A DNA stretch of 64,000 nt from Piedraia hortae CBS 480.64. Its lineage: Eukaryota. Under the pieces are notes generated by a model, which saw nothing but the letters and a program-made list of their open reading frames with translations, was not told the DNA's origin and ran no database searches. Position numbers and translations under genes: made by a program. Positions within the stretch are counted from its first letter, which is position 1. The number at the start of each line of letters is the position of its first letter. The stretch spans positions 62,001 through 126,000 of the forward strand of contig MU005993.1 of NCBI GenBank assembly GCA_010093745.1, read 5' to 3'. Positions 3,448 to 9,534 of the stretch are shown piece after piece.

Positions 3448-5784
3448 TTATTCGTCGCCATGGTGTCCAGCACCATTGTTCAACGGCTTAGAGATTGCTT
3501 CGTCTGCATCCTTTTGATCCCAATTGCCCAACCATCCATTGGTTTTTGGCGGTGGGGTTGGCGGAGCGGCCGAATGGTGTGTTCCTGGCCGCGAGCCATC
3601 TCCATTGCCGGGGAAGGCCGATTGGCCATTGTAGCCTGACGTTTCGCTGTCGTCGTAAAATGGAGATGGATAAACGCCAACAGCCTTCACCAGCTCGATG
3701 ACGGCACTCGTAAGATTGCTAGCAGCAGCGTCTACTAAGACCACTGGAGACAAGCCGTTTGCCATTGAGTGCTGCTTGGTTGCCGTAATCAAGCTGTTCG
3801 CAGTGCCCGTCACCCTCGCCAAATGACGAGCGGTGTCGTCGGTCTGTGACTGTGCTCGAGAAGGTGGACGACTACTGGCCGCAGTCACGGCAGAAGTCAT
3901 GGAACGCACACAGACGATAGTCTTCTTAACGCTGCAAAGCATCTCGTGTGGGTCTGTTTTCCTCACACTTTGGAGAAGATCATCGATGGTGGTTTGAAAC
4001 TGCGTGAGGTCTGTATCCCGCACCAAACCGTTTTCTGTTACGAGTCCTTCAAGATTTGGTCGGAGAACCTGGCCCAGTCCCGCAGTGGAAGCTCTCAGGT
4101 TCCTGTTCTGGGCCTTGATTTTTGCATGTCTCTGGCGCCAGTGATCCACCTGACTCTCTAAGTGCGCAACTCTAGCCATTAGACGCTCTTCTCTCTCCAT
4201 TGCATCGTCGTTTTCCCGGCTGAGGGCTCGCATCTCTTGCAGATACGCCCTTGCTTCGCTCCGAACCTCTTCTGCCAGCTTTTCTTGTCTGACTAGTTGT
4301 TCCTGAAGGCCGGAAACGTGCTCCTGGCTGGGTCCGTCCCTCTTCGTGGACTGCAAACTGAGAATTTGCTGCCTAAGGACCTCATTTTCTGCCTGATGAT
4401 GTTGCAGCTGACGCTCCATGTCGCCCTTGGCCTCGACCAGTTGCATCTGCAGGTCTTCAACAACAGCATAGTGGCTATCGCCGAGCTCATTACGCAGGTC
4501 CGTTAGCCTCAGCTCGTGCTGAGCGAGAGCATCTGCATTTTCCCGCGCTTTCTGCTCCTTCAACTTATCCAGCTCAAGCTGCAGAGCCTCGTTTTGTTGC
4601 CGGAGGCTGAGATGACTGTTCTGGAGCTCCTCTCGCGCAGTCTCCATTTGTTTCTCTCGCTCTGCAAGAGTCTTTTTGAGGCTATCTATTTCTCCGTCTC
4701 TCTCCGCCGCCACCCTCTCCATCTGCTCGACTTTTGCCTTCAGCTCATCAAGCTCCTCCTGTTGCGCTTTCAGCTTATCCTCGTCCACGCTGCCTATCTT
4801 GAAGAAACCGGGGCTGTTAAGTCCCGCCAAAGCCTTGTCCAGGCCGAAATCGTCTTCGACCTCCTCGTCACCGCTTCCGTCGTCTTCCATCATTGTACTC
4901 TTAGTGGGGACAATGGTTTTGCTGGCGAGGGGGCGTGCAGCGATGGGAGTCTGGCTACGCGGCGGCAGATTATGAGCAGGATCTCCTGGGCCCAGCCGCA
5001 AAGGTTGTCGGCTTCCGGATCCAGGTATGGGTCCCATTGGGCTTAGCGGATGCATCGGACTCAACGGTGGAGCTCCCAGCGGACTCAGAGGAGGCCGCGT
5101 GTTGAGGGCGCTGCCACTACTGCCCGGACGGTCGGGGTCCGCTACATTATAGCGTGGAATCCGCCGCTCCAACTCGTAAAAGACATCTGCCGCCAGCTGA
5201 GTGAAGCGTGGAGGAGGCAGCGAGGCCAACCTCTGGCGGGCCTGATTCCGCTTGGGATGGAAATCGCGCTTGGGGGGTAACGCTGGCGGTACGTTGGGCA
5301 CACGCTTCGTCCGCATATCTTCTCGTCTGATTAGCTCGTCGTACACGTCGGTACTGAGCTCCATGAACTGCGTGGCTGATAGGCGGAGCAGCTTGTCCCG
5401 CGCTTTGTTTGGCCTGGAATTGCCCTGTTCGTCACGCAACTTGACGGCCAGGTAGTCGCGGAATACGGCTTGGTGTTTCAGCAATCGATCTTCGTGTTCT
5501 GGACGCAGGAGACTCCGCCCGCTGTCCCGGACCCCAATGCCGGAAAAGCCAGTGACATTGCTCATACTGGACGACGGTCGTGTCAAGTCCACTGATCCGC
5601 CGCTAACCGATGGCCTGGAGCCGGTGGTTCCTGACGGAGACGCGGGTAGGGGATGCATCGCATTCGACGCAGCGGGAAAGTTGGGCTCTGCCGGAGTTCC
5701 CGCCGCACTCGCGGGGCCCGACGCGAAGGACGTGGGGCTCGCCGGAGTCCTGGGAGGAGGCCCGAATTGTCCAAGAGTCGTCAT
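3448..5784 (-). CDS. SPA2: Polarisome scaffold Spa2-like protein (GIT/Spa2 homology repeats, coiled coil)
   Basis: 778-aa ORF with RPNKARDKLLRLSATQFMELSTDVYDELIRR and PKRNQARQRLASL Spa2-homology motifs, a central coiled coil and a C-terminal GLSPVVLVDAAASNL motif. Confidence 0.9.
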   Translation of the reverse strand: MTTLGQFGPPPRTPASPTSFASGPASAAGTPAEPNFPAASNAMHPLPASPSGTTGSRPSVSGGSVDLTRPSSSMSNVTGFSGIGVRDSGRSLLRPEHEDRLLKHQAVFRDYLAVKLRDEQGNSRPNKARDKLLRLSATQFMELSTDVYDELIRREDMRTKRVPNVPPALPPKRDFHPKRNQARQRLASLPPPRFTQLAADVFYELERRIPRYNVADPDRPGSSGSALNTRPPLSPLGAPPLSPMHPLSPMGPIPGSGSRQPLRLGPGDPAHNLPPRSQTPIAARPLASKTIVPTKSTMMEDDGSGDEEVEDDFGLDKALAGLNSPGFFKIGSVDEDKLKAQQEELDELKAKVEQMERVAAERDGEIDSLKKTLAEREKQMETAREELQNSHLSLRQQNEALQLELDKLKEQKARENADALAQHELRLTDLRNELGDSHYAVVEDLQMQLVEAKGDMERQLQHHQAENEVLRQQILSLQSTKRDGPSQEHVSGLQEQLVRQEKLAEEVRSEARAYLQEMRALSRENDDAMEREERLMARVAHLESQVDHWRQRHAKIKAQNRNLRASTAGLGQVLRPNLEGLVTENGLVRDTDLTQFQTTIDDLLQSVRKTDPHEMLCSVKKTIVCVRSMTSAVTAASSRPPSRAQSQTDDTARHLARVTGTANSLITATKQHSMANGLSPVVLVDAAASNLTSAVIELVKAVGVYPSPFYDDSETSGYNGQSAFPGNGDGSRPGTHHSAAPPTPPPKTNGWLGNWDQKDADEAISKPLNNGAGHHGDE

Positions 5785-6225
5785 GGTGTGTTGGAGACCT
5801 GTCCGTCCACAGCGAACACAGGCGAGAAATCCGTCCCTTGTATGGGCGTTCCCCGCGAAGTTCTAAATTTGGCCTTTGCTTCGCCATCTCTGATTTGTCC
5901 GTCCGCGCCCCGCGGGAACAGCCGCTGCAGGTCCTGAAAACGTCAACGACCAATCGCGGGAGACATCGCTTGACCTCTGCCAAATCCCTGCCAGTGTAAA
6001 GCCGTCACAAAGAATTCAAGGATGAGCTGGCCATGCCAAGGCTGAGGATACGCATTGTCCAATCACCAAGCTATGAACTACCCTGTACGAGTTTTCGCTG
6101 GTCGCACTCGGAAGGGTAGAGTGTGTACGTGGAATCATGTTTTACTGGTCTTGGGTGATATACATGGGCATAAAATGGCAGATGATTTCCTAGAGTATAC
6201 GAAAATTTCTCTGATCTATTCAAAA

Positions 6226-6455
6226 ATGCAATTCAAAATCTTGACGACTCTGCTGTTCCTTTCTGCCGTGCCGGGTGCATTCGGGCGAGCACTTTGCCAA
6301 TCTGAAGATCACGAGGGAATCTGTCTTCCGATCGAGTGGTGCACAAGTGGTATTCTATGCATTCTTGTTATGAGACTCATTTCAATACTGATTTCTCAGG
6401 GAATGTCGTCTATGATATCTGCAATCCTGGGAAGACTGAATGTTGCCTTGATTGA
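6226..6455 (+). CDS. Small secreted cysteine-rich peptide, copy 1 (apparently intact; beta-defensin-like Cys spacing), 59 aa
   Basis: Exons 6226-6349 and 6400-6455, 50-nt phase-1 intron GTATTC..ACTGAT..CAG. Translation MQFKILTTLLFLSAVPGAFG-RALCQSEDHEGICLPIEWCTSGNVVYDICNPGKTECCLD*: hydrophobic signal peptide plus 6 Cys. Confidence 0.85.
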
Positions 6456-6659
6456 TATCAAGTTGAGAATCATGTGGAGCTATTGTGAAAACGAACGAGC
6501 CTACCCATTTTGAACATCGGAGCAGGTCGTGTTGATCAATGCAGGGTATGATTTACTGAGCTCAGCTTGTTCTCGCTTCACACGTTCCCTTCGTGATACT
6601 CGAAAACCCTGTGACGAAAGTACATCATGCTTAACCGAGAGAATTGGCGGAGACGGTGA

Positions 6660-6725
6660 AAGATACGATCCATAGCCGAGCTGAAGCACCCTACACCTTT
6701 TTTGCTGATCCGAGGAGATATATTA
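6660..6725 (+). promoter_or_regulatory. Upstream block + TATA-like element shared by peptide copies 2, 3 and 4 (also at ~7165-7231 and ~8275-8341)
   Basis: AAGATACGA..TAGCCGAGCTGAAGCACCCTACAC / AAGATAGGATACTTGGGCGAGCTAAAGCATCCTGCAC / AAGATACGAGACTTAGGCGAGCAAAAGCATCCTACAC, each followed about 20 bp later by a TATAT(A/T) motif. Confidence 0.6.
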
Positions 6726-6829
6726 TCAACAGACGCTATTTTACTAATCCACCAACGCTTCCAAACAACGAGCAATTCTCTTCGTCGTGCTGTCAAAGGC
6801 CCTCAGCATGGTCTTGTTCGCCTCCCAAA

Positions 6830-7062
6830 TTGCAATTCGAGATTCTGACTGCTTTGTTGTCCCTTTCGGCCGTGCCGGCTGTGCTTGCCAAGGCATGCGA
6901 ACATGAGGGGCGCCAGGGACTATGTTTCCCAATCGAGAGGTGCACAAGCAGTATGAATCGTTGTTCTGATTTCCACCCTAGATCTGATTGTTTAGGGGAT
7001 GTAATGCACAGTCTCTGCGGTCCACCTGGGCGACAGAATGTTGTTTTGATATGGCAGCCTGA
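6830..7062 (+). pseudogene. Cys-rich peptide copy 2 (start ATG>TTG; frameshift in exon 2)
   Basis: TTG-QFEILTALLSLSAVPAVLA-KACEHEGRQGLCFPIERCTS, intron 6951-6995 at the same position as in copy 1, exon 2 RDVMHSLCGPPG. The conserved TECCFD then lies in a different frame (GGG CG ACA GAA TGT TGT). Confidence 0.8.
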
Positions 7063-7288
7063 GGTGCTATTGTGAAAGGCAGTCCATTCGATTCACTGAG
7101 TTGAGATTGTTCTGCTTCGCATATTGTCTTTTGTCATACTCTGAAACTTTGTGACGGGTGGCGTAAGATAGGATACTTGGGCGAGCTAAAGCATCCTGCA
7201 CCACTGCTGCTCAAATAGGTAGGTATATAGGAGGCAGACATAACAGTTCTTCACACCGCCAACGCGTACCCTGACATTCACCTCCAAA

Positions 7289-7513
7289 ATGTAGTTTCAA
7301 GTCTTGATGACTCTGCTTTTCTTTCCTGCCATTTCGGCTGTTCTTGCTCGGACATGATGCGAATATGAGAGCCACGAGGGAAACTGTCTCCCGATCGAGA
7401 TTTGCACAAGTGGTACGCATCCTTGCACCCCCCTTCACCTCAAGATTGACCTTTCAGGGAACATGATCTACGATTCCTGCGTTCCTGGGAGAACTAAATG
7501 CTGCCTTGACTGA
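7289..7513 (+). pseudogene. Cys-rich peptide copy 3 (two premature stops)
   Basis: Exons 7289-7412 and 7458-7513 (same lengths as copy 1): M*FQVLMTLLFFPAISAVLART*CEYESHEGNCLPIEICTSGNMIYDSCVPGRTKCCLD*. All 6 Cys are retained; intron GTACGC..CAG. Confidence 0.85.
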
Positions 7514-8401
7514 TGATGTTTCGTGCTCGGAATGTCCTAATGCATAGTGCGGTATTGCTCAGATACATCATAGGAGAGTCAGTTGTTCCTGGTCCTGGAG
7601 TATCTTGTGTCCACTTTTGACCATTCAAGTGCAGATAACAGGTCTGCATCGATGCAACAAGAGACAGCAGCTCACCGATACCCTGGAGGTGCACCCCTGC
7701 TCAGAAACCCATCGGAAAGTCTCACTAATCCATCTTCAGAGGAAGCGTGCCAGCACAAAGAGCTACATATCACCCGTGAACTGGGATGGAAACATTCAAA
7801 AAGCATGCCAATCTAATGTTTGAACTGGGACGCGTCGATCGAGCTAGGTTTTACCCATATATGTTGGTTGTTGAGCGAGCAATTCGCAAGTGTGCACGCA
7901 GTGGGGATGTGCACGGATTATGAGAGTATGCCTTTTGGATTTAAGTACGAGCTATGGATCCATAGTATCCAATTTCAGACTTCGAGATGAATTTGACTTC
8001 CCAAATTTCACATGTCAAAACTAAGTTTCGTTTTTTTCACAACTAAATTTGCTTATCATATGCACGTACAGCTGGGGAAATAAGCTAACAGTGTTTGCGC
8101 GCTAAAGTACAATATTAAAGAATATCGGCTCGATATTTTTCTCCGGTGTAGCACAACTGGAGAATATATTCCCATATGCTTACACGTAGTCTCTGATCGA
8201 AACACTTCAACTCTGAACCTCTATGACGGGGAGTACAACCTCCTGCTTAGCCGAGCAGATCGGCGAGATGGCATAAGATACGAGACTTAGGCGAGCAAAA
8301 GCATCCTACACTATCTCTGCTGATTCAAATAGGTATATAAGCCGCGGTTCTTCAATTGTCGACCCCAAGAAGCACTCAAATAACAAGCAATTTTATCAAC
8401 C

Positions 8402-8649
8402 ATGCTGTCAAAGACACTCACCATACTTTTTTTCCTGTCTAGTGTGGCTGTTGTGTATGGCAGTGGCTCATGCCGAGTTGGTGGTACCCTGAGTGGCACC
8501 TGCAAGCCGTACTTCGACTGCAATGTTACGTATTCTTCGTATCAACTCCAGAATTACAACTAATCAATTGAACAGGGCCTTATGTCGCTGGATGCATTGG
8601 TGATCCTGTTACAAAATGCTGCCTCGATGACGCGGTGACTGCGAAATAA
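8402..8649 (+). pseudogene. Cys-rich peptide copy 4 (divergent; phase-1 splice donor apparently mutated)
   Basis: MLSKTLTILFFLSSVAVVYG-SGSCRVGGTLSGTCKPYFDCN, then exon 2 from 8576 (xG)PYVAGCIGDPVTKCCLDDAVTAK*. Joining in frame needs a phase-1 donor at 8526, which reads TTACGT instead of GTACGT. The nearby GT donors give other frames. Confidence 0.7.
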
Positions 8650-8811
8650 TCACCGAGAGAGATTGATGTGTAAGACGAAGACATGAGACCTGGGTAGCTC
8701 CTCATCATCTATTATGTAACTATGCCTCCGCTGATCGTTCTCTCTATCTACAACGACCACCTGAAAATCATGCCATCTAAAGCCCCATTCATCTAACAAT
8801 TCGCCCCTCCC

Positions 8812-9534
8812 TCACCTTCCCCCCCCCTCCTCCCCCGTCACCCGCCTCACAAACCCTTCATCTGGCCTCAACAGCAAAACATGAAAATGCTCAATGGCAT
8901 GAACACTCTTCAGCGCGGCCCAGTTCTTAAACCAAACCACGCCCTCACTTCCAAAGGTCTCTTTCACAAACCCCTCAACTTTCTCTTTCACCTCAGGCTT
9001 CAACCTCCCCTGCCCCCCCTCCTCCTCCTCCAAGGGAAACTTCGTCCAAACAACAAGATGCACCACTCCCTCCTGCACGGCATACGGCCAGTCATTCCTG
9101 AGCACCTTGCAATCCCTCGAATCCTCAAAGAGCCCCCCCCTAGGGGTAACCGGTTCCGTCCAGTTAAGTCGTTCGCGGAGCATGTAATTCATCACGCTGC
9201 CGTGCGTGTTTGTGATTTCGTGGCAGTAGGCGCGGTATTTTAGGAGAGAGAGGGGCGTGCGGATGAATTTCTCGAGGGAGTTGGTTTCTACAATGGCGAG
9301 GATTGTGGGCCAGTCTAGGAGGGGAAAGGAGGATTCGGGAGTGGAGAGGATTGCGAGGTCTTTTGGGTTTGAGAGGGCGTAGAGGAGGTAGGGCGGGCAG
9401 GTGGGGGTTTGGAGGGTAGGGGGGAGATTGGTGTTCCAGAATTGGGTGTGTTTGTTGGGGGGAGTGGAGGGATGTTCATTAGGCTCGTTGATGTGTTCTT
9501 GGGAGGGGTTGTGAGAGAGGTCGTTGGATGGCAT
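8812..9534 (-). CDS. GIG1/DUF3605-family protein (N-acetylglucosamine-induced protein-like)
   Basis: 240 aa with KVLRNDWPY, VHLVVWTK and WFKNWAALKSVHAIEHFHV motifs typical of this family. Confidence 0.8.
   Translation of the reverse strand: MPSNDLSHNPSQEHINEPNEHPSTPPNKHTQFWNTNLPPTLQTPTCPPYLLYALSNPKDLAILSTPESSFPLLDWPTILAIVETNSLEKFIRTPLSLLKYRAYCHEITNTHGSVMNYMLRERLNWTEPVTPRGGLFEDSRDCKVLRNDWPYAVQEGVVHLVVWTKFPLEEEEGGQGRLKPEVKEKVEGFVKETFGSEGVVWFKNWAALKSVHAIEHFHVLLLRPDEGFVRRVTGEEGGGR

Follow-up and report, generated by a model that had tools for sequence, protein, structure and literature searches.

Architecture of the array

The genome of the hair fungus Piedraia hortae CBS 480.64 carries, within the 64-kb stretch analyzed here (64,000 nucleotides [nt] of contig MU005993.1, assembly GCA_010093745.1; hereafter "the window," whose numbering is used throughout), a tandem array of four paralogous two-exon units. 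All lie on the plus strand, at 6226-6455, 6830-7050, 7289-7513, and 8402-8649 (copies 1 to 4), and we consider it very probable that these represent real secreted-peptide genes. The region 5800-9200 was read directly, with three-frame translation, and exons were joined by coordinate from start codons and splice sites. An earlier reading of this DNA, made from sequence only (hereafter the sequence-only reading), had placed four such units here, and direct reading, translation, and exon joining bear this out. The same is true of their common pattern: a signal peptide, a phase-1 intron after Cys3, and six cysteines arranged as C-x8/9-C-x5-C-x7/9-C-x6/7-CC-[LF]D, with G-x-C at Cys2. In all four units the intron occupies the same position and phase, 2-3 codons past Cys3, and the six Cys codons are kept in each copy. 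The invariant positions in an alignment of the four exon-1 peptides are C24, G31, C33, P35, and C39 (G-x-C at Cys2, then C-x-P). The N-terminal hydrophobic cores reach Kyte-Doolittle maxima of 2.1-2.6, and positions -3 and -1 are occupied by small residues (in copy 1, A and G, respectively).

The sequence-only reading recognized a single intact unit, which must be corrected to two of the four, as copies 1 and 4 are both open. Copy 1 encodes an intact pre-peptide of 59 amino acids (aa), with a mature part of 39 residues, a Cys spacing of 8,5,9,6,0, and the ending CC-L-D. Its exon 1 (6226-6349) encodes a 20-aa signal peptide and Cys1-Cys3 and ends on the first base of a Gly codon that continues in exon 2. 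The intron (6350-6399; 50 nt, GT..AG, phase 1) has a branch-point-like CTGAT 8 nt before the acceptor, and exon 2 (6400-6455) provides Cys4, the CC doublet, LD, and the stop codon (6453-6455). Copy 4 is more diverged and encodes an intact 65-aa pre-peptide (mature part 45 residues; Cys spacing 9,5,7,7,0). Here, exon 1 (8402-8525) encodes the signal peptide and Cys1-Cys3 and matches residues 1-41 of the GenBank protein KAF2859413.1. The intron (8526-8575; 50 nt) reads TT..AG in the genome (GT..CA if cut one base to the left) and has CTAAT 12 nt before the acceptor, and exon 2 (8576-8649) encodes Cys4, CC, LD, and a 7-residue tail ahead of the stop (8647-8649). Both open copies have A at -3 before the ATG.

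The other two copies are pseudogenes. In copy 2 (6830-6950 and 6996-7050, flanking a 45-nt intron at 6951-6995; delimited by alignment and three-frame reading), TTG replaces the ATG, and compared to copy 1 there are 2 inserted nt that put the reading frame off ahead of the CC. Copy 3 (7289-7412 and 7458-7513, flanking a 45-nt intron at 7413-7457) is interrupted by in-frame stops at codons 2 (7292-7294) and 23 (7355-7357). It keeps six Cys codons, the CC-L-D end, and the Cys spacing of copy 1 (8,5,9,6,0).

Transcription and splicing

Two public runs carry this DNA, one of DNA (X1) and one labelled "RNA?" as a guess (X2). In X1 the entire stretch lies in one contig with no joint; as this run is probably the source of the assembly, it is not independent. 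The letters of the X2 contigs are identical to the window except that four intervals are skipped. The joint 6348/6399 skips 50 nt (GT..AG if cut at +1, i.e., 6350-6399, the copy 1 intron), and the joint 7411/7457 skips 45 nt (GT..AG, cut at +1, 7413-7457, the copy 3 intron). The joint 8524/8575 skips 50 nt at the copy 4 intron (GT..CA), and the joint 7577/7635 skips 57 nt, with only 30 letters on its shorter side. No run is on record as RNA, and X2 was taken as such solely from its splice-like joints: given that three of the four coincide to the base with predicted introns, we treat it as spliced RNA from the same or a nearly identical strain. The sequence-only reading had proposed looking for junction reads at 6350-6399, and the X2 contig skips exactly this interval, ending copy 1 exon 1 at the predicted base; the joint is absent from X1. 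Copies 1 and 4 are transcribed and spliced, and copies 2 and 3 are transcribed pseudogenes, the first with its intron retained (in the X2 contig that spans 5984-7577 and is unbroken over 6399-7411) and the second with its intron removed. It should be noted that a contig across several genes is not the same as a single transcript, and that contigs give neither strand, ends, nor expression level. There is no X2 contig cover over 7920-8222, and nothing is concluded from this gap.

A TATA-like ATAAAA at 6170 would fit an mRNA start for copy 1 near 6200. Farther upstream, the ATG at position 6073 shares the reading frame of the copy 1 start, with no stop between the two. Judging from the sequence, a transcript initiated as far upstream as the copy 1 contig begins would either give an N-terminally extended product with an internal signal peptide or carry upstream ATGs.

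The junction of copy 4 is unusual. The donor in the DNA reads G/TTACGT (the slash marks the exon end), compared to G/GTAYKM in copies 1-3, and the X1 Logan contig has the same letters. No X2 contig covers the copy 4 intron, and the public protein model uses the same junction as the RNA. Either TT..AG is spliced efficiently or the cultures used for DNA and RNA differ at 8526.

Paralogy and history of the array

When the window was searched with copy 1 (tblastn), the matches were copy 3 (E 8e-19), copy 2 (4e-12), and copy 4 exon 1 (0.006); there was no fifth copy in the 64 kb (nothing further below E 0.2). The coding DNA of copies 1 and 3 is 72% identical, and a repeat search paired the exon blocks of copies 1 and 2 at 64-78% identity. 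On these sequence comparisons, chance likeness of the units is ruled out and the copies are paralogs. For the mature part of copies 1 and 3, the nonsynonymous rate (dN) is 0.22 and the synonymous rate (dS) is 0.61. As dN is below dS, purifying selection acted on the family over much of its past.

Copies 2, 3, and 4 also share an upstream block of 71 nt on the plus strand (repeat family D1). The reference block lies before copy 3 (7159-7229), and the other two, before copy 2 (6654-6724) and copy 4 (8269-8339), are 66% and 77% identical to it. The block ends in a TATA-like element (6719, 7224, and 8334) and has no counterpart before copy 1. Thus copy 1, the sole intact gene of its type, may be under different regulation from the remaining copies. 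A second set of repeat blocks (family D7) is also found upstream of copies 2, 3, and 4 (6598-6618, 7138-7158, and 8210-8230). The D1 and D7 blocks contain AAGATA-type motifs, and copy 1 has only the ATAAAA at 6170.

Upstream of copy 2 there is a 58-nt remnant (6762-6819) that is 72% identical to 8377-8434, which comprises the 5' leader and first 11 codons of copy 4; it has GTG where copy 4 has ATG. Copy 2 looks chimeric, with a copy-4-type head and a copy-1-type body, which suggests unequal crossing-over or gene conversion inside the array.

Sequence searches

A profile of the exon-1 peptides was compared to 1.84 billion representative proteins and gave one match at E<=0.001 (6.5e-19), the product of copy 4; because this profile stops at Cys3 (signal peptide plus Cys1-Cys3), it could miss distant relatives. 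Spliced copy 4 encodes exactly KAF2859413.1 (hypothetical protein K470DRAFT_258899 [Piedraia hortae CBS 480.64]), which is alone in its cluster. None of the protein collections searched contains copy 1 (with the exon-1 profile over the 1.84 billion representatives, and with exon 1 in a word-based search), a judgment made because the copy 1 protein would match its own profile strongly. A word-based search with the copy 4 product among proteins of near length returned only itself among three candidates, and one with its residues 21-65 against longer proteins returned none. In metagenome contigs from the Joint Genome Institute (JGI), a family-alignment search gave 57 pattern matches, none of which was confirmed. 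Pfam-A yielded no family for the copy 4 product at E<=10 and none for the exon pieces. Two PDB sequence matches, to a TNF-receptor repeat (E 0.21) and to IMPI (E 2.1), were taken as chance.

At the sequence level, and within the protein, Pfam, PDB, and metagenome collections, the family is therefore an orphan of this lineage. The sequence-only reading had proposed a lineage-specific family, and no other relative turned up in these collections; it had also named a match to an already characterized family as the outcome that would speak against it, and Pfam and PDB sequences gave none. Its description of the array as hidden holds for copy 1 and not for copy 4, given the GenBank entry. Likewise, the idea that gene finders would miss such genes applies to copy 1, which is expressed, spliced, and unannotated, and not to the annotated copy 4; the family as a whole is mostly unannotated. 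Copy 1 shows how an expressed, spliced gene of 59 aa can slip past annotation. The fungus lives on human hair and, among 101 Dothideomycetes, is the one with the smallest genome (16.95 Mb) and the lowest gene count (7,572) (PMC7082219).

Cysteine framework and predicted fold

In beta-defensins the disulfides pair C1-C5, C2-C4, and C3-C6, and the two bonds from the CC strand point in opposite directions. The Cys spacings of copies 1, 3, and 4 (8,5,9,6,0 and, in copy 4, 9,5,7,7,0) lie within the beta-defensin range, and the cysteine features of the trans-defensin class are present: six Cys, a CC doublet at the C terminus, and short loops between the cysteines. The cationic charge of classical antimicrobial defensins is lacking. 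The mature peptide of copy 1 has 7 D/E versus 2 K/R (net -5), a recount that reproduces the figures of the sequence-only reading, and the net charge is -3 for copy 3 and 0 for copy 4. The arrangement CxxxC ... CxC, which is the framework of the cis-defensins (PMC5234102), known for their cysteine-stabilized alpha-beta (CS-alpha-beta) structure, is absent from copies 1, 3, and 4. This rules out cis-defensin identity and agrees with the sequence-only reading on that point. Cis-defensins are the only defensins described from fungi (PMC8877149), and the trans (beta-defensin) class is described from animals only (PMC5234102; PMC8877149). Our searches within a limited literature collection found no fungal beta-defensin-fold peptide in print; a beta-defensin shape would be the first for fungi, if true.

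Assignment to the Pfam beta-defensin or CLIP families (PF12032, PF18322) fails by sequence, with no family matched at E<=10. CLIP domains are located N-terminal to a trypsin-like protease, and the copy 4 product is 65 aa standing alone. Overall, the cysteine framework is that of the structural trans-defensin class, and the models suggest the matching topology.

Modeling and structure searches were performed with the copy 4 product only. AlphaFold2 (AF2) modeled the full pre-peptide from three alignment rows with a mean predicted local distance difference test score (pLDDT) of 66.6 (core blocks 68-78). The mature 45 residues were modeled from four rows with a mean pLDDT of 71.3 (core blocks 76-80; four of the five models 66.8-71.3), and this model comprises four short strands and a C-terminal helix turn. 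For both models, Foldseek against the PDB ranked helianthamide (4x0n_B) first, with template modeling (TM) scores of 0.55-0.58; the PAP2 clip domain was ranked fourth for the full model. A second structure search, VIA, is independent of Foldseek and covered 48,161 PDB chains. With the full model, one chain reached Z>=2, again helianthamide (Z 2.4). With the mature model there were six: helianthamide (Z 3.0, root mean square deviation 3.1, 40 of 44 residues aligned, 28% identity), APETx1 (Z 2.5), human beta-defensin 4 (Z 2.4), platypus Int-DLP (Z 2.1), the CLIP domain of Drosophila Grass (Z 2.1), and an N-terminal piece of Cypridina luciferase (Z 2.0). Four of the six, APETx1 and the platypus peptide included, are beta-defensin-fold peptides, and a fifth is a CLIP domain. 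Big defensins and crotamine were not among the VIA matches listed, which excludes nothing.

The ESM Atlas has its own model of the copy 4 product (pLDDT 0.60). Its feature search gave leads at 0.77-0.79, below threshold, including clusters with Defensin_beta or Defensin_beta_2 in 17-18% of members; shuffled proteins reach scores of this kind (< 0.9) a third of the time. The whole-protein structure search found a chordate beta-defensin cluster (TM 0.59) and also CLIP proteases as neighbors. With the mature part, the neighbors were clusters of Peptidase_C39_2 (TM 0.75), SH3_3 (0.67), and NLPC_P60 (0.64), PF26571 "VldE" secreted proteins of Ascomycota (0.66), and arthropod CLIP proteases (0.54-0.66), although TM > 0.5 says little at ~40 residues. 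The matches to multi-domain proteins fall on unannotated stretches of those proteins.

The sequence-only reading expected a beta-defensin fold from structure prediction and structure search. The neighbors are indeed mostly beta-defensin-fold peptides; with pLDDT at 67-71, Z at <=3.0, and Foldseek E at >=2.4, they suggest such a fold rather than demonstrate it. We favor a beta-defensin-like fold by a little over an even chance. It is the best available reading of the models and still a prediction.

Comparison with known peptides and modules

The closest group overall is that of the animal beta-defensin-fold peptides (vertebrate beta-defensins, big defensins, helianthamide, APETx1, and platypus peptides). 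They share with the Piedraia peptides the six Cys, the terminal CC, and the G-x-C at Cys2, are likewise small, secreted, and encoded by two-exon genes in tandem clusters, and, bar two, are the only PDB chains that resemble the model. However, Piedraia is a fungus, its peptides have no match by sequence or in Pfam and carry a net charge of -5 or 0 instead of being cationic, and an intron interrupts the mature peptide after Cys3. Convergence with animal defensins is at least as likely as homology.

Within this group, the best structural match is to helianthamide; it and magnificamide are similar in length (~44 aa), in having three disulfides, and in being anionic. The copy 4 product does not match helianthamide by sequence in the PDB at E<=10, and the cysteine spacing of the two sea anemone inhibitors differs from that of the Piedraia peptides. 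Both belong to the beta-defensin family, have charges of -1.2 and -1.8, and inhibit alpha-amylase, and magnificamide (84% identical to helianthamide) showed no antimicrobial activity (PMC6835510).

Arthropod CLIP domains offer another comparison. These are three-disulfide modules with G-x-C and a terminal CC, and are structural neighbors (Z 2.1; TM 0.54-0.66). They differ in being N-terminal parts of proteases, whereas the Piedraia module stands alone, and the Pfam CLIP models have no match. CLIP domains share the beta-defensin disulfide pairing; their Cys3-Cys4 loop is longer than that of the Piedraia peptides. The known fungal defensins (CS-alpha-beta peptides such as plectasin, micasin, and eurocin) are also small, secreted, and six-Cys, and some are near neutral and target-binding; plectasin binds lipid II. 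In their case, the CxxxC/CxC framework absent from copies 1, 3, and 4 sets them apart, as does the copy 4 model, in which no helix is stapled to the sheet.

Function and alternative explanations

We put at about an even chance the full interpretation that the array is a lineage-specific tandem family of tiny secreted, disulfide-rich peptide genes of P. hortae, beta-defensin-like and target-binding. Under this interpretation, cleavage of the signal peptide would release three-disulfide peptides of 39-45 aa outside the cell, which are predicted to fold in beta-defensin-like fashion, as a small antiparallel sheet with the CC doublet on the last strand. The mature peptides might then attach with high affinity to a single extracellular target, a component of microbial cell envelopes or a hydrolase, and this binding could serve competition with other microbes on hair. 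With a net charge of -5 (copy 1) or 0 (copy 4), membrane lysis of the kind performed by cationic defensins is improbable. The existence of an anionic, enzyme-inhibiting analog (helianthamide) and the peptidoglycan-hydrolase contexts seen in the Atlas favor specific extracellular binding. By analogy, the peptides could be specific-binding antagonists of microbes or of their enzymes, a proposal that we regard as tentative and as having somewhat less than an even chance of being correct.

Several observations weigh against the beta-defensin-like interpretation, and some against a functional family. The AF2 models were built from 3-4 alignment rows, and no residue reaches pLDDT 90. Foldseek found no match in the PDB at E<=0.001 (the best E-values were 2.4 and 5.7), and all VIA Z-scores are <=3.0, where a Z < 8 may mean merely a common arrangement. 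Predictors trained on the PDB may just echo the cysteine spacing of defensins, and disulfide pairing, the defining feature of the trans class, is not readable from the models. By sequence, the Pfam models for Defensin_beta (PF00711), Defensin_beta_2 (PF13841), big defensins, and CLIP have no match to the copy 4 product at E<=10, and the best PDB sequence match (E 0.21) was no defensin. Two of the four copies are decayed, and the family may be dying out. Finally, the copy 1 RNA contig begins at 5984, 5' of seven other ATGs that lie within 6022-6182, and so long a transcript would translate the peptide poorly.

The most serious alternative is that this is an orphan cysteine-rich family with another fold and an unrelated role (e.g., in the nodule matrix or in signaling), its defensin likeness being a coincidence of spacing amplified by predictors. 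The middling model confidence, the uniformly weak structural scores, the charge unlike that of classical defensins, and the failure to find a sequence homolog in any collection searched are all what one would then expect. Nevertheless, the AF2 and Atlas models both lead to the same small set of neighbors, and four of the six PDB chains at Z>=2, of 48,161, are beta-defensin-fold peptides, so we judge this unlikely, while giving it real weight. At the other extreme is a decaying locus whose transcripts are non-coding read-through, with no peptide made. The continued transcription of two pseudogene copies out of four, the single RNA contig across copies 1-3, and the non-canonical donor of copy 4 in the DNA would all fit. 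But copies 1 and 4 retain open frames, signal peptides, six Cys, and A at -3 before the ATG, dN is below dS, and introns are removed precisely and in phase, which makes this explanation very improbable.

Two further alternatives differ in function or affinity. In one, the peptides are not antimicrobial and instead act, as helianthamide does on alpha-amylase, as tight-binding inhibitors of a hydrolase of a competitor microbe or of the host surface. Helianthamide tops every structure search, helianthamide-type peptides are anionic (as is copy 1, at net -5), and magnificamide showed no antimicrobial activity (PMC6835510). An Atlas feature match at 0.78, to a cluster with Inhibitor_I68 in 12% of members, points the same way as a lead only, given how often shuffled proteins reach scores < 0.9. 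Against this, Z is just 2.4-3.0, helianthamide is not matched by sequence in the PDB at E<=10, and no candidate target enzyme is known; we consider the inhibitor explanation fairly unlikely. In the other, the peptides are a free-standing CLIP-like three-disulfide module, otherwise carried by microbial and fungal cell-wall hydrolases, that binds the bacterial cell wall, and the likeness to animal beta-defensins is secondary. The highest Atlas TM scores are indeed to Peptidase_C39_2, SH3_3, PF26571, and NLPC_P60 (0.75, 0.67, 0.66, and 0.64), those to CLIP proteases are 0.54-0.66, and the Grass CLIP domain (Z 2.1) and the PAP2 clip domain (Foldseek rank 4) are among the PDB neighbors. The sequence-only reading had mentioned similar cysteine modules on cell-wall-lytic enzymes, and these Atlas proteins are consistent with that, as leads by TM. 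The Atlas model has a pLDDT of 0.60, a TM > 0.5 is weak at this length, the word-based search of longer proteins found none, and the Pfam CLIP models do not match, so that this explanation seems to us distinctly unlikely. On a bolder reading, the beta-defensin/CLIP-type module would not be an animal invention and would occur in fungi both as free peptides and fused to NlpC/P60, Peptidase_C39_2, SH3_3, and PF26571, with the Piedraia peptides as the first fungal trans-defensins, used against hair bacteria. We offer it as a long shot.

If the beta-defensin fold were verified, it would either carry the trans class beyond animals or document clear-cut convergence on one disulfide scaffold, and in both cases would inform the old debate on the origins of the defensin classes. 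A secreted antagonist or inhibitor would be ecologically plausible in an organism that dwells on hair among bacteria. Peptides of this length can be synthesized, and thus can be tested directly and cheaply.

Flanking genes and minor features

The array is flanked on one side by a SPA2-like gene (3448-5784, minus strand), the product of which has Spa2-homology (GIT_SHD) and C3G9 VBS-like domains, and on the other by a DUF3605 gene (8812-9534, minus strand). The copy 4 RNA contig extends to 8827 and overlaps the 3' end of the convergent DUF3605 gene. C-rich and CT-rich runs (8800-8860 and 9020-9040) are found at the 3' end and in the interior of this minus-strand gene.

Downstream of copy 3, the X2 joint with the short side corresponds to a further intron on the plus strand (7578-7634; 57 nt, GT..AG). 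The surrounding interval, 7514-7832, is transcribed and contains no obvious cysteine-rich open reading frame; it may be a long 3' untranslated region or non-coding read-through RNA.

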